Notes under the pieces: model-generated
Database searches by the model: none
What the model saw: the letters and a program-made list of their open reading frames with translations, nothing else
Told to the model about the DNA's origin: nothing
Translations under genes and position numbers: made by a program
Part shown: positions 23,241-44,347 of the stretch, one piece after another
How positions within the stretch are numbered: position 1 is the stretch's first letter
Layout: each line of letters begins with the position of its first letter
Assembly (NCBI RefSeq): GCF_003334765.1
Contig: NZ_QOWT01000002.1
Source of the DNA: Escherichia coli
GTDB taxonomy: Bacteria; Pseudomonadota; Gammaproteobacteria; Enterobacterales; Enterobacteriaceae
Reading direction: 5' to 3' (one strand)
Length of the DNA: 64,000 nucleotides

Positions 23241-23706
23241 AATTGCCAATGAATACGCAAAATTGATGGATTCAGATTTAGAACCAGAGATGATTGCTGA
23301 CACAATAGAAGGCATGGAAGGAGAATTTACCGATAAAATAGAGCAACTTCTTTCCGTCATTAAAAATGAATCTGGTTATGCTGAACGCCTCAAGGAAGAG
23401 GCAAAGTCACTGAATGAGCGAGCCGCAGTAATTCAAAATAAGATTGACAGCATCAAATCATATATAGCGTCATCGCTTGAAATGGTTGGCAAGAAAAATA
23501 TTCGAGCAGGTATTCACCAGGTAACAATCCGCAAACCGTCAGAAACTGTAGAAATCATCGACTCAAGCGCCCTTCCTCCTGAATACCTTGAGTTTGAAAC
23601 GACAATTAAAGCCGACAAACTGGCAATCAAGCACCAACTAAAAGCAGGAATAAATATTCCCGGTGCTCAACTCAAGGTTGGGAAACCTTCACTTCTTATC
23701 AAATAA
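23218..23706 (+). CDS. Phage protein, coiled-coil N-terminus (Gp157/Mu-Gam-like?), unknown function
   Basis: 162 aa ORF overlapping recT end. Confidence 0.45.
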   Translation: MPVSKLYEIANEYAKLMDSDLEPEMIADTIEGMEGEFTDKIEQLLSVIKNESGYAERLKEEAKSLNERAAVIQNKIDSIKSYIASSLEMVGKKNIRAGIHQVTIRKPSETVEIIDSSALPPEYLEFETTIKADKLAIKHQLKAGINIPGAQLKVGKPSLLIK

Positions 23707-23717
23707 CGGTATCGCCT

Positions 23718-24032
23718 ATGAAAAAGACTCCATGGGAGAAATGGGAAGTCGATTTCTTGCGCGAAGTAGCGGCGACAATGCCAGTTGAAGTTATCGCTGA
23801 AAAACTGGAAAGGACTGAAAAAGCAGTAATGGCAAAAGCAACAAGGATTGGCGCTGACATTGTTAGCCGACTTCGTGGAAGACGATGGACAAGAGCCGAA
23901 GTATCACTTTTCGGTAAGTTCTCCGCAGAAGAAATAGCAATTGCAACCTGCCGATCAATTTATTCAGTAAGAGCTATGCGATACAAGCTAAAAAAACTCG
24001 ATGAAGAAAGAGCAGGCATACGAATAAATTAA
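23718..24032 (+). CDS. Hypothetical phage protein
   Basis: 104 aa ORF in early-left operon. Confidence 0.45.
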
Positions 24033-24212
24033 CAAAGAGGAATTAATCATGAGAGGGCTTGCATACAATCCCGGCATTCTTCCGGCAGAAATGATTATTC
24101 GCCAACGCGTAAAGCCAATGCCATCGAGAGAGGAATTGCTTAAGAGAAATAGTTTCGGTTCTGTTAATGACAACAAATATCTGAATGCGATGTTGCGTAA
24201 AGGAGGCAAGCA

Positions 24213-24512
24213 GTGAGTGTATGTCTTATTGATAAACGTCGACGTGGGCAACAAATACCATCTGTTGGAATGCCGAATCACACATGGTTTTGCGTACTTG
24301 ATATCGATGGTATGGATGCGTTGGTTGACACTCGTCATTACTGCGATACCGCAACAGCTACTCCGGCGAAAGCAAAGAAAATGGCTGCTCTGATAGAAAA
24401 CTGGACTCCACCTGATGGTTGGTGCAATGGGAATGATCGAGATTGGCACGAAAAAATGAAGGGCTATATCTGCGATTTTTTACGTAAATGCAACGGCTTC
24501 AGGGTGATGTGA
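24213..24512 (+). CDS. Hypothetical phage protein (Cys/His/Trp-rich)
   Basis: 99 aa ORF. Confidence 0.4.
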
Positions 24513-24513
24513 T

Positions 24514-24921
24514 ATGAACAAGATTGACTATCAGGCACTGCGTGAAGCGGCAGAGAAAGCCGGTGAAGATAAGTGGCAGGCTAAAAAAATAAATGGTGAT
24601 TTTTTCGTTATTCGTCACGGTAGTTATACAAGACAGCATGGCTACACATCGTATCAACCCATTGCGGAGATTGATTGTAAGCAAGTCCGGGATTTTGTTG
24701 CCAAGGCTAATCCGGCTACCGTGCTGGAATTACTGGATGAACTGGAAGCAGCAAAAAAGCGCATTGCAGAACTGAAAGCGCGGGAAATACTGCTCCCGGA
24801 ACGTAGCAGCATGCTTCATCGAACAGATTTTCACGATGATTACCAAACGGTAATGGCATACAAAGTTTCTGAAGTCATCGATGCAATCCGCGCTACTGGC
24901 ATTCGCATCAAAGGAGAGTGA
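24514..24921 (+). CDS. Hypothetical phage protein (Ead/Ea22-like region)
   Basis: 135 aa ORF, 1-bp gap from previous ORF. Confidence 0.45.
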   Translation: MNKIDYQALREAAEKAGEDKWQAKKINGDFFVIRHGSYTRQHGYTSYQPIAEIDCKQVRDFVAKANPATVLELLDELEAAKKRIAELKAREILLPERSSMLHRTDFHDDYQTVMAYKVSEVIDAIRATGIRIKGE

Positions 24922-24922
24922 T

Positions 24923-25552
24923 ATGAGCGCTATAACCAAAGAACGTATCAAATTATTCATTAAAAATCCGCTTGATAACGGACTTACTCGTGGCGAACAA
25001 ATGGAACTGGCACGAATTGCACTGGCATCACTGGAACGCGAACAGATTCGCCACGAGCATGCCAAATGGTCTGACTCCACATTTGGCTGCGTTGGCCCCA
25101 TTGGTCCACTGAAACACCTCTCAAAAGAGGCACTGGAAGCCGCAGCCGAACCTGACGATCTCAGCGAGTGGGCTGATATGCAGTTCCTGTTGTGGGATGC
25201 ACAGCGCCGTGCTGGTATCAGTGATGCTGAAATTACCGCTGCTATGGAAAATAAATTGAAGATCAACATGGAGCGCCAGTGGCCTGAGCCAAAAGATGGT
25301 GAGCCTCGCTTGCACATTAAAGAACCCGGCAACTCTCCGGTAACTCCGGATGGTTGGATAAGCTGTAGTGATCGAATGCCGGAAGACACCAAAATGTTAC
25401 TGGCATTTAGTCAAGGTAAAATCGTGGCCGCATATTGGAACTGGGTTATAAATCCAATTGATTACAAAAAATATAGAGCTTTCACGTATTTATCAGGATA
25501 TATCTTGGATGACGTAACTCACTGGATGCCGCTACCAGAGCCTCCACTTTGA
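24923..25552 (+). CDS. Hypothetical phage protein with DUF551-like C-terminus
   Basis: SD AAGGAGAG before ATG 24923; C-terminal ...HWMPLPEPP typical of lambdoid early-region proteins. Confidence 0.5.
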   Translation: MSAITKERIKLFIKNPLDNGLTRGEQMELARIALASLEREQIRHEHAKWSDSTFGCVGPIGPLKHLSKEALEAAAEPDDLSEWADMQFLLWDAQRRAGISDAEITAAMENKLKINMERQWPEPKDGEPRLHIKEPGNSPVTPDGWISCSDRMPEDTKMLLAFSQGKIVAAYWNWVINPIDYKKYRAFTYLSGYILDDVTHWMPLPEPPL

Positions 25553-25647
25553 AAGCGAAGCTTATACATATCTTTTACATCAGCAATCTATTGTTAATCT
25601 CCAATCAATGTTACGTTGTCATCTCACTCATGCTTTGGAGGTAGTGA

Positions 25648-25828
25648 TATGTCTTGTCCAAAATGCGGTTCTGGAAATATTGCAAAAGAAAAAACAATGC
25701 GTGGATGGTCTGGTGATTATGTGTGCTGCGATTGCGGATACAACGACTCTAAAGACGCATTTGGAGAGCGTGGTAAAAACGAGTTTGTTAAAATTAATAA
25801 AGAACGCGAAGGCAACGAAAAAAGCTAA
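25648..25828 (+). CDS. Small zinc-ribbon protein (CPKCG...CCDCG)
   Basis: SD GGAGG before ATG 25648; two CxxC pairs. Confidence 0.5.
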
Positions 25829-25891
25829 TTTATTTATTCATATATGAAAACAATGTAACCAATATTCGAATTGAAGAACTGAAAGAACACC

Positions 25892-25916
25892 AAGCCGCCT
25901 GATGGCGGTTTTTTAT
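25892..25916 (+). terminator. Rho-independent terminator (AGCCGCC-TGAT-GGCGGTT + T-run)
   Basis: GC-rich hairpin followed by TTTTTTAT. Confidence 0.7.
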
Positions 25917-25924
25917 TACCTGAT

Positions 25925-25940
25925 TTGCAGGTTCGATTCC
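25925..25940. repeat. Internal partial argW copy TTGCAGGTTCGATTCC (T-arm segment)
   Basis: 16-nt identity with 5601..5616 of argW, located upstream of torI. Confidence 0.6.
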
Positions 25941-25959
25941 CTATTCGGAGATAGCACTC

Positions 25960-26160
25960 ATGCAACACGAACTACAGCCTGATTCACTGGTTGATTTGAA
26001 ATTCATCATGGCCGATACTGGCTTCGGTAAAACCTTCATCTATGACCGGATTAAGTCCGGCGACCTGCCAAAAGCCAAAGTTATCCACGGGCGAGCAAGA
26101 TGGTTATATCGTGACCATTGTGAATTCAAAAATAAGCTCTTAAGCCGCGCCAATGGGTAA
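25960..26160 (+). CDS. torI: TorI: recombination directionality factor (excisionase) and TorR inhibitor
   Basis: 66 aa MQHELQPDSLVDLKFIMADTGFGKTFIYDRIKSGDLPKAKVIHGRARWLYRDHCEFKNKLLSRANG; recognised. Confidence 0.85.
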   Translation: MQHELQPDSLVDLKFIMADTGFGKTFIYDRIKSGDLPKAKVIHGRARWLYRDHCEFKNKLLSRANG

Positions 26161-26232
26161 AATAGCGGGTAAAATATTTCTCACATCTAAAAAACACCAT
26201 TCCAATCAATCCCCTGCCGCTTCAAGTAGATG

Positions 26233-26248
26233 TCTGCAGGGGACACCA
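26233..26248. repeat. attR core: 16-nt direct repeat CTGCAGGGGACACCAT
   Basis: Identical to argW 3' end at 5616..5631. Confidence 0.7.
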
Positions 26249-26343
26249 TCCTTGTGTTTATCCCTAAAACCACATAAAAACCGTAAATTAAATTCGAACT
26301 AGCAGGCCGAATAAGGCACACCAGGAACTCGTGGTTTTATTCA

Positions 26344-27279
26344 TTATGAAGTGGTTTTTACCTGTTCTCTTAGCCAGATAATAAACGCTTCAATTTTTGG
26401 CCACTGCCTGCCCGGTAATGTGGTGATGTAATAATGCTGATGGCATTTCACCGTCATATCGCCAAACGGCGCGACGAGCTCACCACTGGCAAGCCTTTTT
26501 TGTACCAGGCGTTTTCTTCCCATCGCCACCCCAATATGATTCATCGCGGCAATAACAGCTAAATCAGAACGATCAAAGCCAATTCCAGAAGATGTCGGCA
26601 AATTAACCGCATAATGTTGCGCCCAACTATGCCATTCATCCGTACCGGAGTCGTTGCTCCATGCCTGTCTGTCATGGAGCAACGTACAGTGACACAGGTT
26701 AATTACCGTGTTGGTTAAAGCATGTCTTTGAGCGTATTCCGGGCTACATACTGGCAGGATTTCTTCATCCATCAGAAAGTGATGAGTGAGTTGCGCTGAC
26801 GGCGCATCATCAAAGTAGATCGCCAAATCGATTCCGGCACGTTGCAGATTGACGTTGTCATTACCAGTGAGCACGGTGAGCGAAATAGACGGATACCGGC
26901 GTGTAAAGTCACCTAATGCGGGCACCAACCAGCATTGGGCGATAGAGGGCCGGGAATACAGAGTTAACGTTCCCGATAACTCCTGATTTTTGATATCAAG
27001 AATTTCCTGGTTCAGGGTATCCAGCGACGATTTTAGCGCCCAATAAACACGTTTCCCCTCGTGCGTTAATTCCACTTTGCGATGGGAACGAACAAACAAC
27101 TGAATGCCCAATTCTTCTTCCAGCTGATTGATACGGTGACTTACCGCACTGGGGCTCAGCGACAATTCCTCTGCCGCCAGGGCGAAGGACTGATGCCTGG
27201 CAGCCACTTCAAAAGTATGCATTTTTGATAATTGCCAGCCGTTAAGCAGCCGATTTCTTATTTCACGAAGGGGTTCCAT
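26344..27279 (-). CDS. dsdC: LysR-family activator of D-serine utilisation DsdC
   Basis: Recognised; ORF 26344..27285, start probably MEPLREIRN. Confidence 0.9.
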   Translation of the reverse strand: MEPLREIRNRLLNGWQLSKMHTFEVAARHQSFALAAEELSLSPSAVSHRINQLEEELGIQLFVRSHRKVELTHEGKRVYWALKSSLDTLNQEILDIKNQELSGTLTLYSRPSIAQCWLVPALGDFTRRYPSISLTVLTGNDNVNLQRAGIDLAIYFDDAPSAQLTHHFLMDEEILPVCSPEYAQRHALTNTVINLCHCTLLHDRQAWSNDSGTDEWHSWAQHYAVNLPTSSGIGFDRSDLAVIAAMNHIGVAMGRKRLVQKRLASGELVAPFGDMTVKCHQHYYITTLPGRQWPKIEAFIIWLREQVKTTS

Positions 27280-27496
27280 AATCACCTCATTTTTCGCTTA
27301 AGTGTAAAAAAATAGCGGCAAAATTTCAGCTATGAGATGAGCTAAAGTAAACCATATCTCAATTCACCTTCATTTTTAGATGTAAATCACTCCATTGATG
27401 CAATTTACCTCATGTGAAAGGCAAATTTTATCGTTTGTCAGCCTGCGTTGTTTTTTTGTCCAATATCATCAGGTTAATCACAGGGGAAGGTGAGAT

Positions 27497-28834
27497 ATGC
27501 ACTCTCAAATCTGGGTTGTGAGCACGCTGCTTATCAGCATCGTGTTAATTGTACTGACCATCGTGAAGTTCAAATTCCACCCGTTTCTGGCGCTGTTGCT
27601 GGCCAGCTTCTTCGTGGGAACGATGATGGGCATGGGGCCACTGGATATGGTAAATGCTATTGAAAGTGGAATTGGCGGAACGCTGGGGTTCCTCGCAGCG
27701 GTTATCGGCCTTGGCACGATACTGGGAAAAATGATGGAAGTATCCGGGGCCGCAGAAAGAATTGGTCTGACACTTCAACGCTGCCGCTGGCTTTCAGTTG
27801 ATGTCATTATGGTGCTGGTTGGCCTGATTTGTGGCATCACGCTGTTTGTTGAAGTGGGCGTCGTGCTATTGATTCCTCTGGCTTTTTCAATTGCCAAAAA
27901 AACCAATACCTCATTATTAAAGCTTGCCATTCCGCTATGTACCGCATTGATGGCAGTGCACTGCGTGGTTCCTCCACATCCGGCTGCTTTATATGTTGCC
28001 AATAAGCTGGGCGCAGATATCGGTTCGGTGATCGTCTACGGTTTGCTGGTTGGGCTGATGGCATCACTGATCGGTGGCCCACTTTTCCTTAAATTTCTGG
28101 GTCAACGACTGCCCTTTAAACCTGTACCCACAGAGTTTGCAGATCTCAAAGTTCGCGATGAAAAAACACTACCGTCATTAGGCGCAACGTTATTCACCAT
28201 ACTGCTACCCATTGCGCTGATGTTGGTTAAAACGATTGCCGAATTGAATATGGCGCGTGAGAGTGGTTTGTATATCTTGGTTGAGTTTATTGGCAACCCT
28301 ATCACTGCCATGTTTATCGCCGTGTTTGTCGCCTATTATGTGTTGGGTATACGCCAGCATATGAGCATGGGGACGATGCTCACACATACGGAAAATGGCT
28401 TCGGTTCTATTGCTAATATTTTGCTGATTATCGGGGCCGGAGGCGCATTCAACGCCATTTTAAAAAGCAGCAGTCTCGCTGATACGCTGGCAGTTATTCT
28501 CTCCAATATGCATATGCACCCGATTCTTCTGGCCTGGTTAGTGGCTCTTATTCTGCATGCGGCAGTGGGCTCCGCTACCGTGGCAATGATGGGGGCAACG
28601 GCAATTGTTGCACCCATGCTGCCGCTGTATCCCGACATCAGCCCGGAAATTATTGCGATTGCTATCGGTTCAGGTGCAATTGGCTGCACTATCGTTACGG
28701 ACTCGCTTTTCTGGCTAGTGAAGCAATATTGCGGCGCTACGCTCAATGAAACATTTAAATACTATACGACAGCGACATTTATCGCTTCAGTCGTCGCTCT
28801 GGCGGGCACATTCCTGCTGTCATTTATCATCTAA
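27497..28834 (+). CDS. dsdX: D-serine transporter DsdX (GntP family)
   Basis: 445 aa polytopic membrane protein; synteny dsdC-dsdX-dsdA. Confidence 0.9.
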
Positions 28835-30287: not shown

Positions 30288-31826
30288 TCACCCAACGCCT
30301 TTCGCTGTAAACGGCGGTTTCGCAAACCAAACCAAAACCGTAAGTAAGATAAAAGCAATAGCCGCCATACGGAAAATCTCATTTGCAGAAATAGAAAGTG
30401 ACTGCTGGGTTATTTCATTATTAATTTCATTAAGAACTCCTGAAAGCGAACCATAATATTTATCCATAATTTGTGACGATGAATTAAACACGGGGTTAAA
30501 TTGATCGATGGTTGCTGTCAACTGACTATGGTGTAACGATTCGCGTCGTCCCCACAGCGTCATTGTCAACGACGTACCAACTGATCCTGACAAGGTACGA
30601 AAAAAATTACTCATACTCGAGGCATTGGCAAATTTATTATCTGGCAAGCCTGAAAACGAAATCGTTGTTAAGGGTAAAAAGAAACAGGCAACGGCGAATC
30701 CCTGAAAAAACTGCGGCAAAATGATGCCTGTAAAATCAATCGTTGGCATAAATGTCACAGAACGCCAGTAATAGCAAACCGCATACATCAAAAAACTAAA
30801 TGTCACTAACAACCGCATGTCTATTTTGTTGCCATAACGTCCTATCAAAGGTGAAATTAATAGTGGCATGATGCCGATGGGCGCATAAGCAAGTCCGGCC
30901 CATATCGCATTATACCCCATCGTTTCCTGGAGTAACTGCGGCATAAGGACGATCGCTCCAGAGTAAAATAAATACGCGCATGTGATACTCACAATACCAA
31001 TGGTGAAGTTACGGGACTTAAACAAACTGAGATCAAGAATCGGGTTCTCTGAGGTCGACTCCCAAATGACTAAAGAGATCAGAGAAATAACTGATACTAC
31101 TGTTAATATTATTATTGTACTCGAGTTGAACCAATCCAGATCGCGCCCTTTATCAAGCATAATTTGCAAGCCACCAACACCGAGCACTAACAGGGTCAGT
31201 CCTGGTAGATTCATTTTGACCGGTGAAGTCTCAGTTTCTCTTCCTTTAAGTAAGGTTAAGCATAATGTCAGGACGATAATCCCCATAGGGACATTGATTA
31301 AAAATATCCAACCCCAGCTAAAGTTATCACAAATATAACCGCCCAATATCGGCCCACATATCGGAGCGATAATCACGGTCATTGACCATAATGCCAGAGC
31401 AAATGTTCTTTTTTCTGGCGGATAATTCCTTAATAATAAACTCTGTGACAGTGGAATTAACGGCCCCGCCATTAACCCCTGAACGACTCTAAAAAATATC
31501 AGCACATCAAGATTGGTCGATAGGCTACACATTAATGAAGACAGCGAAAAAAAAGTGACTGAAAGTAAAAATAATCTTAATTCGCCTATTCTTTGTGCCA
31601 ACCTGCCAGTAACAGGGATCGCAATGGCATTTGCTACACCAAACGAGGTGATAACCCAGGTGCCTTCGTCTGTTGATGCTCCCAGAAAGCCAGATATTGT
31701 CGGTATTGCGACGTTAGAAATAGTGGAATCCAACATTTGCATAAATGTCGCTAATGACAATGCAATAGTGACGCACCATAACGTCCCACCGGTTAATGGT
31801 GCCGGAGTTGATTTAGTGATTGCCAT
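30288..31826 (-). CDS. emrY: MFS multidrug efflux pump EmrY
   Basis: 512 aa, 14-TM MFS; start overlaps emrK stop. Confidence 0.9.
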   Translation of the reverse strand: MAITKSTPAPLTGGTLWCVTIALSLATFMQMLDSTISNVAIPTISGFLGASTDEGTWVITSFGVANAIAIPVTGRLAQRIGELRLFLLSVTFFSLSSLMCSLSTNLDVLIFFRVVQGLMAGPLIPLSQSLLLRNYPPEKRTFALALWSMTVIIAPICGPILGGYICDNFSWGWIFLINVPMGIIVLTLCLTLLKGRETETSPVKMNLPGLTLLVLGVGGLQIMLDKGRDLDWFNSSTIIILTVVSVISLISLVIWESTSENPILDLSLFKSRNFTIGIVSITCAYLFYSGAIVLMPQLLQETMGYNAIWAGLAYAPIGIMPLLISPLIGRYGNKIDMRLLVTFSFLMYAVCYYWRSVTFMPTIDFTGIILPQFFQGFAVACFFLPLTTISFSGLPDNKFANASSMSNFFRTLSGSVGTSLTMTLWGRRESLHHSQLTATIDQFNPVFNSSSQIMDKYYGSLSGVLNEINNEITQQSLSISANEIFRMAAIAFILLTVLVWFAKPPFTAKGVG

Positions 31827-32989
31827 TAAAGTTGTCCATTATGCGAAATAATGTTGCTAATTTCTTTTTCTATCGGACTGGTATCGATAACTAAAGCCTT
31901 ACTGGTATAAGCCGGCATGGAGGTCACGGTTGAAGCCAGCTCAGGCATCTCGGCAATGTCTTCGTTCTTCGTATCAATAGTTGCTGTCATCGATAAACCA
32001 ATACGCAAGGGGTGTTCCATGAGTTCTTTTGGATCAAGAGAAACTTCAACCGGTACACGCTGAACGATTTTGATCCAGTTCCCTGTCGCATTTTGTGCAG
32101 GTAATAAGGAGAACGCATTGCCGGTTCCCATATTGATCCCTGTCACCCGACCATGAAACACAACATTTTCACCATAAAGATCGCTGATAATATTGACCGA
32201 TTGACCAATCCGTACATCCGTGAGTTGTGTTTCTTTAAAGTTGGCATTAACCCACATTTGACGTGCCGGTACGACAGCCATTAACGATTGTCCGGGGCTC
32301 ACTGTTTCGCCGACCTGAACACTTCTCTGGGCAATATAGCCGGTAACCGGACTCTTAATATCCGTACGTTTAAGCGCCAACCAGGCTTCTTTAGTTGCAT
32401 CCGCCGCTTCAACGACTTGTGGCTGACGGTTTAATGGTGTGTTCATTACTAAAGCTTTATTCGCTTTATAAGCCTGGATAGCGGCATTCAATGCCGCTTT
32501 GCTACTTATTAACGTATCTTTGGTATGCTCCAGCGTTTCTTTTGAAATAACCCCCTGCTTCGCTAACGGCACTCGACGGTTATAATCTTCTAAAGATTGT
32601 TGATACTGAATACGTGCTGAAGCGACTTCGGCACTGTATTGTTTATCCTGTAAGTATAGTTTATTCGTTTGCCGAACAATATTTGCCAGATTATTTTTAG
32701 CTTTATTGAGTGCGATAGTGGCATCAGTTTTATCCAGTGAAACTAAAATGTCACCTTGTCGAACGTAGTTCGTATCTTTATGATTAACGACAGTGACACT
32801 ACCTGAGACTTGTGCAGAAATTGGATCTGCATTCCCCGTGACATAGGCGTCATCTGTACTAATCATGTCTTCTAATTCCATTGACCAATAGGCATAGGCA
32901 CCTGAAAACGCAATAAATAAAACTACCGCCAATAAAGAAAAGTATTTTCTTCTGTTAGAATGTTTTTTATTTGAATTAATCTGTTCCAC
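31826..32989 (-). CDS. emrK: Membrane fusion (periplasmic adaptor) protein EmrK
   Basis: 387 aa, single N-terminal TM then coiled-coil/lipoyl domains. Confidence 0.9.
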   Translation of the reverse strand: MEQINSNKKHSNRRKYFSLLAVVLFIAFSGAYAYWSMELEDMISTDDAYVTGNADPISAQVSGSVTVVNHKDTNYVRQGDILVSLDKTDATIALNKAKNNLANIVRQTNKLYLQDKQYSAEVASARIQYQQSLEDYNRRVPLAKQGVISKETLEHTKDTLISSKAALNAAIQAYKANKALVMNTPLNRQPQVVEAADATKEAWLALKRTDIKSPVTGYIAQRSVQVGETVSPGQSLMAVVPARQMWVNANFKETQLTDVRIGQSVNIISDLYGENVVFHGRVTGINMGTGNAFSLLPAQNATGNWIKIVQRVPVEVSLDPKELMEHPLRIGLSMTATIDTKNEDIAEMPELASTVTSMPAYTSKALVIDTSPIEKEISNIISHNGQL

Positions 32990-33162
32990 TATTATCTCTC
33001 ATTTCTCATAGATGAAATTTATGAATTGAATGAAAAGAGCATTCATTCTTCATATCAAACACAGTGCATGTGTTGCACATTATCCCAGGAACGTTGGAGG
33101 CCTAATTTAAATGAGGTGCAAAAAAAACAACAGAGGACTAAACCGTGGCTTTTGCAATACAA

Positions 33163-33189
33163 TTCTTACGCCTGTAGGATTAGTAAGAA
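33163..33189. promoter_or_regulatory. EvgA-box-like inverted repeat TTCTTAC-N13-GTAAGAA in emrK-evgA intergenic region
   Basis: Perfect 7-bp inverted repeat arms; recalled EvgA binding region. Confidence 0.4.
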
Positions 33190-33404
33190 GACTTATAGTG
33201 CCAACTTGAAACTATAAATCATCGGTACAATCCCTGATTTTATTGTTGACATTTCATTTATGCCGACTATTTATATGGTATACTTGTCGAATTATCTTAA
33301 AGGAAGCTCAGATTTTCTTATTTTTATTGAGAAAATGAGATGACGCCTTATGTCTGTATTACTACAGGGAGAAGGGAGATGCTTCATTGCAAAGGGAATA
33401 ATCT

Positions 33405-34019
33405 ATGAACGCAATAATTATTGATGACCATCCTCTTGCTATCGCAGCAATTCGTAATTTATTGATCAAAAACGATATTGAAATCTTAGCAGAGTTGACT
33501 GAAGGCGGAAGTGCCGTTCAGCGGGTGGAAACACTTAAGCCTGATATCGTCATCATTGATGTCGATATCCCCGGAGTTAACGGTATCCAGGTGTTAGAAA
33601 CGCTGAGGAAGCGCCAATATAGCGGAATTATTATTATCGTCTCCGCTAAAAATGACCATTTTTACGGGAAACATTGTGCTGATGCTGGCGCTAATGGTTT
33701 CGTGAGTAAAAAAGAAGGCATGAACAATATCATTGCGGCTATTGAAGCTGCAAAAAATGGCTACTGCTATTTCCCCTTCTCTCTCAACCGGTTTGTTGGA
33801 AGTTTAACGTCCGACCAGCAAAAACTCGACTCCTTATCGAAACAAGAAATTAGTGTCATGCGGTATATTCTTGATGGCAAGGATAATAATGACATTGCTG
33901 AAAAAATGTTCATCAGCAACAAAACTGTCAGCACTTATAAAAGTCGCCTGATGGAAAAATTAGAATGTAAATCACTGATGGATCTTTACACATTCGCACA
34001 ACGTAACAAAATCGGCTAA
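33405..34019 (+). CDS. evgA: Response regulator EvgA (REC plus LuxR-type HTH)
   Basis: 204 aa; recognised. Confidence 0.95.
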   Translation: MNAIIIDDHPLAIAAIRNLLIKNDIEILAELTEGGSAVQRVETLKPDIVIIDVDIPGVNGIQVLETLRKRQYSGIIIIVSAKNDHFYGKHCADAGANGFVSKKEGMNNIIAAIEAAKNGYCYFPFSLNRFVGSLTSDQQKLDSLSKQEISVMRYILDGKDNNDIAEKMFISNKTVSTYKSRLMEKLECKSLMDLYTFAQRNKIG

Positions 34020-42904: not shown

Positions 42905-43416
42905 AGCAATACCTATTAGTTAATTAAATATGTGTTAATTTAGCGTTTATTTAAGGCGTAATATCTTCTATAAATAACCCGCAAAATATCGTCGTAGCTG
43001 CACTCGATATTTTTAAAATCCTGTATCAAGTGCTGAAAATCATTTCATCGCCACTTCCAATTCCTTTCTGCATGGTAAGTAGTGAGGACGAAAAGAAGAA
43101 TATGATAAATATTGATTCGTGGTAATCAGAGAGAGTCGCGACATTTGTGATGTTATTCTTACAACTGTAAGAAGCGCCGGTGATTTACAAGCAAGGGTAT
43201 GATTACGCTTTTTAAAGCGTACCATAAAACATAACATAATAAATGATTTGTGATGACACGGGATTATTGCGGTTTACTTTGAGGAATATAAAATGCGAGT
43301 TTATAGCACCGCGAGCGCCAAATAATTTTATGACCACAACCTGTCGTATTGTGGTCATAAAAAATTGTCGGCTGGAGGGAGTTAAATCCTTTACCTCAAT
43401 ATACTGCCTGTCAGCA

Positions 43417-44052: not shown

Positions 44053-44347
44053 ACTTACCTCATTCTTTAACAGTTTTAGAAAACGCCGCCATCATATTGG
44101 GTGAGCATGAAATGAGAAATCAGAGAGCAACGGTCATTTTGAAAGGGTTATCTTACAGTTGTAGTTATTATCGCAAGAAGTATTTTAGTCTTACAATTGT
44201 AGGAATATGCTTCCTGTCGCAGAGAACTATTCTTATATACCACAAAGAGATGTCATTTATTATATCGATGTAAATACTGATTAATTAAATGTAAATACAG
44301 CCATAACATCGTAGGTTCTCAGTGAACCATTTTCAGGATAACTTTCT

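Follow-up and report, generated by a model that had tools for sequence, protein, structure and literature searches.

The emrK-evgA intergenic region

The window, that is, the whole 64-kb stretch of Escherichia coli DNA that was analysed, contains the divergent emrKY and evgAS genes, separated by a spacer of 415 bp (Table 1). On its 3' side, evgA is followed by evgS, yfdE, yfdV, oxc, frc, yfdX and ypdI. In an alignment, the emrK-evgA spacer is base for base that of E. coli K-12 MG1655, and window coordinates are converted into those of NC_000913.3 by adding 2,450,350. Despite this K-12-identical spacer, the strain is not K-12, since a csc sucrose-utilisation cluster (transporter, kinase, cscA and a LacI-type repressor) and a truncated dsdX pseudogene adjoin dsdA at about 23488-28834.

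The spacer holds a perfect inverted repeat, as an earlier note on this DNA had reported: TTCTTAC-N13-GTAAGAA is found exactly at 33163-33189 (TTCTTACGCCTGTAGGATTAGTAAGAA), with fully complementary 7-bp arms, a 13-bp spacer and a distance of 20 bp, or about two turns of the helix, between the arm centres. The exact pattern, which was picked post hoc, occurs only once in the window and had no match in 100 shuffles. Perfect 7-bp inverted repeats with spacers of 0-20 bp are nevertheless common, as there are 208 of them in the 64-kb window (3.25 per kb) and four in the emrK-evgA spacer alone. Since such repeats are common and the hairpin that this one could form is weak, its symmetry by itself does not go beyond chance. 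What is not random about it is that both arms correspond to the EvgA half-site heptamer, TTCYTAC.

A nucleic-acid structure (a cruciform, an RNA hairpin or a terminator) or a 7-13-7 site for another regulator would be an extremely improbable explanation of the repeat. It would make sense of the perfect 7-bp stem, yet the predicted hairpin has a 13-nt loop and a folding energy of -3.5 kcal/mol (z = -1.7), and 17 of 200 shuffled sequences fold as well. There is no T-run, the terminator scan makes no call and the comparison of 33163-33189 with Rfam gave no credible match. Moreover, transcription from the evgA starts (33279 and 33290) and from the predicted emrK start would begin downstream of the repeat, which is therefore probably not part of a transcript, and the polymorphism of one of its arms is not accompanied by any compensatory change. 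With a weak fold, a long loop, no Rfam match and a position upstream of the starts, the repeat was assigned neither to the structured RNAs nor to the intrinsic terminators.

Table 1 Features of the emrK-evgA region and other EvgA boxes of the window
Feature	Position	Strand	Remarks
emrK	31826-32989	-	First gene of emrKY; gene that the box appears placed to activate
emrK-side shared promoter elements	33129-33154	-	CA at 33154-33153; TC then TCTGTT, +26 to +34, at 33137-33129
EvgA box TTCTTACGCCTGTAGGAT	33163-33180	.	Probable operator proper; 8-2-8 inverted repeat, 2 mismatches to TTCYTACA-N2-TGTARGAA
Half-site A TTCTTACG	33163-33170	+	Left arm of the 7-13-7 repeat, emrK-proximal half of the box; 6.8 bits
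Half-site B ATCCTACA (TGTAGGAT on the + strand)	33173-33180	-	Forms the dyad with the left arm; scores 11.2 bits at spacer 2
Orphan third heptamer GTAAGAA	33183-33189	-	Right arm of the 7-13-7 repeat; 8-mer TTCTTACT at 33182-33189
evgA core promoters	33246-33290	+	-35 TTGACA 33246-33251; -10-like TATACT 33279-33284; starts 33279 and 33290
evgL leader peptide ORF	33379-33408	+	Stop codon overlaps the evgA start codon; K-12 annotation (PMC11210196)
evgA	33405-34019	+	NarL/FixJ-type response regulator predicted to recognise the box
EvgA box upstream of frc (yfdW) TTCTTACAACTGTAAGAA	43156-43173	.	Perfect consensus; 26.4 bits, best in the window
Proximal, weaker EvgA box upstream of yfdX ATCTTACAGTTGTAGTTA	44150-44167	.	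3 mismatches; 17.9 bits
Distal EvgA box upstream of yfdX GTCTTACAATTGTAGGAA	44188-44205	.	1 mismatch; 23.7 bits

An 18-bp EvgA box within the repeat

The binding of EvgA to the emrK-evgA region is said to have been established by Tanabe in 1998 and Kato in 2000, reportedly with DNase I footprints, and Masuda and Church are said to have defined the EvgA motif in 2003 as an 18-bp inverted repeat, TTCYTACA-N2-TGTARGAA. A full-text literature search for this motif and for the site sequence gave no match. With up to two mismatches, this consensus has three matches in the 64 kb, against 0.06 expected; they start at 33163, at 43156 (frc) and at 44188 (yfdX). At the K-12 loci, the 8-2-8 dyad also matches once upstream of each of safA (safA-ydeO), ydeP and yegR. 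Since it exclusively recovers known EvgA targets, the consensus can be regarded as validated. The dyads of the window were also ranked with a half-site matrix derived from the other promoters only, the emrK site being left out. The four best 8-2-8 dyads are the frc box, the distal yfdX box, the emrK box (18.0 bits) and the proximal yfdX box, and the next one reaches 6.2 bits.

The same matrix bears on the partner of the left arm. When this arm was paired with inverted 8-mers at every spacer from 0 to 20, positive scores were obtained only at spacer 2 (11.2 bits) and at spacer 11 (9.9 bits), the latter being the heptamer pair of the N13 repeat. Half-site B, the partner at spacer 2, sits inside the supposed 13-bp spacer. 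Two inverted 8-bp TTCYTACA half-sites 2 bp apart are therefore present at 33163-33180, a geometry that the 7-N13-7 unit lacks. The box precedes the emrK start codon by 174 bp and is thus placed ahead of an operon whose EvgA dependence is known from the literature. Compared with the EvgA box already known from E. coli, 33163-33180 shows no difference: it occupies the same locus, is identical to K-12 and has the same 8-2-8 TTCYTACA half-sites. By comparison with this known box, the 7-13-7 unit adds a third heptamer from outside and omits the real right half.

The literature supports the regulator and the location. The sites themselves are cited in PMC3720670, PMC4283999 and PMC9496106, and EvgA-bound inverted repeats are placed ahead of yfdX and yfdWUVE (PMC3720670). 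An EvgA site is present at all directly regulated genes (PMC4283999). With reference to Kato 2000, the emrKY promoter region is described as bound by EvgA (PMC9496106), and emrKY is counted among the genes that EvgA controls directly (PMC9496106, PMC5706723, PMC6393483). The induction of emrK depends on evgA in both E. coli and Shigella (PMC6393483, PMC5706723).

The earlier note had taken the repeat itself for the EvgA site. The location and the regulator hold, but the symmetric unit does not, as the dyad shared with the other targets is 8-2-8 and pairs the left arm with TGTAGGAT. It is highly improbable that the 27-bp 7-13-7 repeat is the operator, with EvgA subunits on the outer arms and both divergent promoters under its control. 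Such a reading would be in line with the perfect symmetry of the arms, the good half-site match of each of them and the distance of about two helical turns (20 bp) between their centres. Nevertheless, this spacing is found at no other EvgA target, a better-scoring inverted partner exists at spacer 2 within the supposed spacer, and the right arm is polymorphic whereas the internal half-site is invariant. A similar error is also on record for BvgA, where widely spaced heptads picked by eye were disproved (PMC7250471). The search for the same N13 motif upstream of further EvgA targets, which the earlier note had proposed, failed: the motif is absent upstream of frc, yfdX, safA, ydeP and yegR even with three mismatches, whereas the N2 dyad occurs at all of them. 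With up to three mismatches, the N13 pattern has five matches in the window against 2.4 expected, the other four lying outside EvgA-target promoters, and none at the ydeP-safA-ydeO and yegR loci. As it is unique to the emrK-evgA locus, the 7-13-7 geometry is not the EvgA motif, and scans for EvgA sites should use the 8-2-8 dyad rather than a repeat that fails at every other EvgA target.

The feature is very probably the described EvgA operator of the divergent emrKY/evgAS region, with 33163-33180 as its unit, the activation of emrKY as its function and a right arm that is not the dyad partner. The recognition unit would be the 18-bp palindrome TTCTTACG-CC-TGTAGGAT at these positions, the bound bases being assigned from motif recurrence, conservation and promoter architecture. 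EvgA is a helix-turn-helix response regulator of the NarL/FixJ type (PMC9496106). By analogy with this family, the simplest model would be that of one phosphorylated EvgA dimer on the box, each monomer occupying one 8-bp half-site and the centres of the two half-sites lying 10 bp from each other. The emrKY/evgAS operator is already known, with descriptions that date from 1998-2003. Its K-12 form is unchanged in the window, so the assessment that this is ordinary core regulation was sound, and the locus has little importance beyond its correct annotation.

The emrK-side promoter architecture

The orientation of the box was studied in an ungapped, box-anchored alignment of six promoters (emrK, frc, yfdX, safA, ydeP and yegR), each oriented by its regulated gene. 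The better TTCYTACA half faces the regulated gene in all six. Counted from the box, the six promoters are in register, with CA at +9/+10 and TC at +26/+27, although they are not fully independent, as the safA/ydeP and the frc/yfdX promoters look partly paralogous. At yfdX, it is the proximal box (44150-44167) that is in register with the shared elements. The CA and TC columns are also conserved in the emrK spacers of two outgroups (L002 and L003, see below), and the C9A10/T26C27 register recurs beside box-like sites upstream of the evgA homologues of Klebsiella and Enterobacter. The box at 33163-33180 thus has the orientation and the register of the boxes at frc, yfdX, safA, ydeP and yegR, with an emrK start that is itself predicted.

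Written out, the common register of the six promoters consists of 8 nt, then CAnAA, then TC(Y)T at +26. It is seen in the window at 33129-33154, 43122-43147 and 44116-44141, and at the equivalent positions of L087 and L088. Another local likeness is the octamer CTTATAGT, which is found at emrK and at safA (about 5101-5108 in L087), in both cases on the distal side of the EvgA box and at a distance of exactly 11 nt from it.

Since its orientation and register match those of the other five EvgA-activated promoters, the box probably activates the leftward emrKY promoter. The activation step would be the one given in the literature, and its placement here the one suggested by the sequence architecture. 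emrK transcription would be expected to start near 33120-33125. A simple sigma-70 scan gave no convincing emrK promoter, the SMRT-Cappable-seq supplement (PMC6131387) lists no emrK start and the Cappable-seq supplement has no entries for the region; a start missing from these data fits a promoter that is silent without EvgA. That the site controls emrKY, as had been proposed, is supported by the literature on this EvgA target together with the orientation and register of the box.

Conservation of the box and of the right arm

The distribution of the region in E. coli was studied by exact 46-mer searches in 5,426 complete genomes, in which about 5,420 records carry the emrK-evgA spacer. The exact K-12-type 46-mer, which has A at position 33185 (GTAAGAA), was found in 2,538 records (about 47%). 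Three haplotypes with G at this position (GTGAGAA) account for 1,280, 1,032 and 371 records, i.e. 2,683 or at least 49%. Together, the four haplotypes make up about 96% of 5,419 spacer-bearing records. The box is kept in all four, and the only variation within it among them is a C/A difference in the 2-bp spacer. Among the four E. coli sequences that were compared, K-12 has the allele of the window and the other three, including an O25:H4 strain, have GTGAGAA; the genomes that match the G haplotype exactly include one of O157:H7.

The scan of contigs for outgroups gave only two close orthologous spacers. The first one (L002) comes from an Escherichia genome whose EvgA is 98% identical, and its box, TTCTTACACCTGTAGGAA, is a perfect consensus. 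The second one (L003) is labelled Yersinia vastinensis; its EvgA is 94% identical, emrK is adjacent and the box reads TTCTTACACGTGTAGGCA. The TGTAGG of half-site B is invariant in the seven aligned sequences (7/7). The homologues of Hafnia, Klebsiella, Enterobacter and Buttiauxella have box-like sites in spacers that are not alignable. Across the orthologous control regions, the box is thus conserved and the right arm GTAAGAA is not. A 63-aa ORF with a TTG start (33026-33217, + strand) that spans the repeat was rejected as coding, as it is interrupted by 1-nt and 2-nt indels relative to L002.

Several records depart from the usual arrangement. In E. coli NCTC10444 (L086), an IS1A replaces everything to the left of the position equivalent to 33226; because of this replacement, the strain keeps evgA and its core promoters without the EvgA box and, at this junction, without an adjacent emrK. 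A 398-bp contig labelled Rhizobium cauense (L007) is 100% identical to E. coli evgA, and both this contig and the one labelled Yersinia suggest horizontal transfer, mislabelling or assembly contamination. Records typed as plasmids, such as the 113-kb CFSAN061762, also carry the emrK-evgA spacer, at 20 places, and plasmid records hold 14 of the 374 places recovered with the GCATG haplotype query. These spacers may stem from pieces of chromosome wrongly binned as plasmids, or from a copy that has been mobilised.

The third heptamer and the polymorphism at 33185

The right arm of the repeat is a third heptamer, GTAAGAA, that forms a direct repeat of half-site B at an offset of 9 bp, on the emrK-distal side. 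Its A/G polymorphism at 33185 decides on its likeness to a half-site: the score drops from 9.9 bits with the K-12 allele to 3.4 with the G allele, and it is -3.3 in L002 and -5.4 in L003. The G destroys T5, a base that is invariant in all 14 half-sites. Only about 21 of the 128,000 8-mers of the window reach 9.9 bits. The chance of a match this good within 25 bp on either side is about 0.016 per box and about 0.1 over seven boxes, and a probability of this order for the third heptamer beside the box is not compelling. The corresponding sequences of the outgroups are ATGAGAA (L002) and ATGAGAT (L003). As both carry G at 33185, G is the ancestral state, and the GTAAGAA heptamer would have arisen in K-12-type lineages by a G-to-A change at 33185 from GTGAGAA/ATGAGAA. 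As judged from these sequences, this one transition made the inverted repeat perfect, a coincidence that is derived and specific to the lineage. A second full box on the right arm was also considered and rejected, as the 8-mer found where its partner would have to be has a score far below zero.

The consequences of this change may be interpreted in two ways. In our reading, GTAAGAA is most likely a neutral element, and any contribution would be limited to that of an auxiliary contact in this lineage. Alternatively, EvgA could make functional use of the third heptamer as an auxiliary half-site in K-12-type strains, which would be compatible with the explanation favored for the box but is itself unlikely. 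A dimer would then occupy the box and recruit an extra EvgA monomer or dimer to the half-site (TTCTTAC) at 33183-33189, tuning emrKY, evgAS or both through stronger or extended occupancy, and perhaps offsetting the two mismatches of the E. coli box. The match is strong (9.9 bits), and the E. coli box has two mismatches whereas L002, which is devoid of the third heptamer, has a perfect box. A near-heptamer, TTCTTGC, also lies just distal of the proximal yfdX box, and the homologue BvgA is known to use arrays of extra weak sites (PMC7250471). Yet the heptamer is 9 bp away from half-site B, is direct rather than inverted and has no partner half, so that it fits neither the 8-2-8 dyad nor the 22-bp dimer spacing of BvgA. 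The offsets at the two loci differ (5 nt at yfdX against 2 nt here), and nothing comparable is found at frc, safA, ydeP or yegR. The heptamer is also missing from both outgroups and from half of E. coli, O157:H7 and O25:H4 among them. Overall, the probability of a functional role in K-12-type strains lies somewhere between improbable and unlikely.

The A/G polymorphism remains the only mildly new point of the locus, in that a common variant makes or breaks an orphan EvgA half-site next to the box. That the derived G-to-A change made a third EvgA half-site and may alter the occupancy or cooperativity of phosphorylated EvgA (EvgA~P) at the emrKY/evgAS region is an improbable but testable proposition. 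If true, position 33185 would be a cis-regulatory contributor to the natural variation of the EvgS/EvgA response, beside the variation of the EvgS sensor described in B2 strains. The polymorphism offers, in any case, a cheap natural experiment on flanking half-sites for a regulator of the NarL family.

Comparison with NarL and BvgA

NarL sites are of the 7-2-7 type, made up of inverted TACYYMT heptamers 2 bp apart, and orphan heptamers occur near them. The EvgA box has the same 2-bp gap and its regulator belongs to the same family, but the heptamer sequence and the regulator differ, and no membership of the NarL class is claimed for it.

EvgA was named after its homologue BvgA, whose sites are abutting inverted heptads with their TTTC ends innermost (TAAGAAATTTCCTA) (PMC7250471). 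Both proteins belong to the NarL/FixJ family and recognise related cores, TTTCCTA/TAAGAAA in the case of BvgA and TTCYTAC/GTARGAA in that of EvgA. In the EvgA box, by contrast, the TACA ends point inward and are separated by a 2-bp gap. At the Bordetella promoters Pfha and Pptx, a strong inverted primary site is combined with weaker sites, and dimers are bound every 22 bp towards the promoter (PMC7250471). The extra heptamer at emrK differs from these arrays, being a single half located 9 bp from its neighbour and on the promoter-distal side. A multi-dimer array of the BvgA type, with centres 22 bp apart towards the -35 element, was thus not recognised in the sequence, where there is only a lone direct half-site, distal from emrK and with no partner; a second dimer 22 bp from the box centre was discarded too, as the sequence at that place is unlike the motif. 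At Pptx, inverted heptads at a wide spacing, chosen by eye, had long been quoted as sites of BvgA until FeBABE mapping disproved them (PMC7250471), which closely parallels the case of the 7-13-7 repeat.

The evgA side of the spacer

The starts of evgA in K-12 (b2369) have been mapped to 2483629 and 2483640 (SMRT-Cappable-seq supplement, PMC6131387), and the reported evgA leader of 114 nt (PMC11210196) agrees with them. The centre of the box lies 107.5 and 118.5 bp upstream of these two starts. evgA autoregulation is 'reported', yet evgA fusions do not respond to acid (PMC11210196); in macrophages, emrK is induced while evgA mRNA is unchanged (PMC6393483). The proposal that the site governs both emrKY and evgAS is therefore better founded for emrKY than for evgAS, given the distance of the box, the acid-blind fusions and the steady mRNA, and the control of evgAS from this box is uncertain.

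A hypothetical rightward promoter with TATAGT at 33195-33200 and the box over its -35 element was considered and set aside, the SMRT-Cappable-seq data having no start site near 33207. The same stretch contains a second perfect inverted repeat, TTATAGT-N11-ACTATAA, at 33193-33217, immediately to the right of the one at 33163-33189. It is kept in L002 and largely in L003, and its arms resemble -10 hexamers (TATAGT), with no start site mapped there.

Further downstream, in the 5' leader of evgA and just upstream of evgL, an orphan 8-mer that resembles a half-site, TTACTACA (9.9 bits), is found at 33359-33366 within a small palindrome, CTGTAttacTACAG. This 8-mer is invariant in all aligned sequences and is more likely to belong to a hairpin of the leader RNA than to be an EvgA site.
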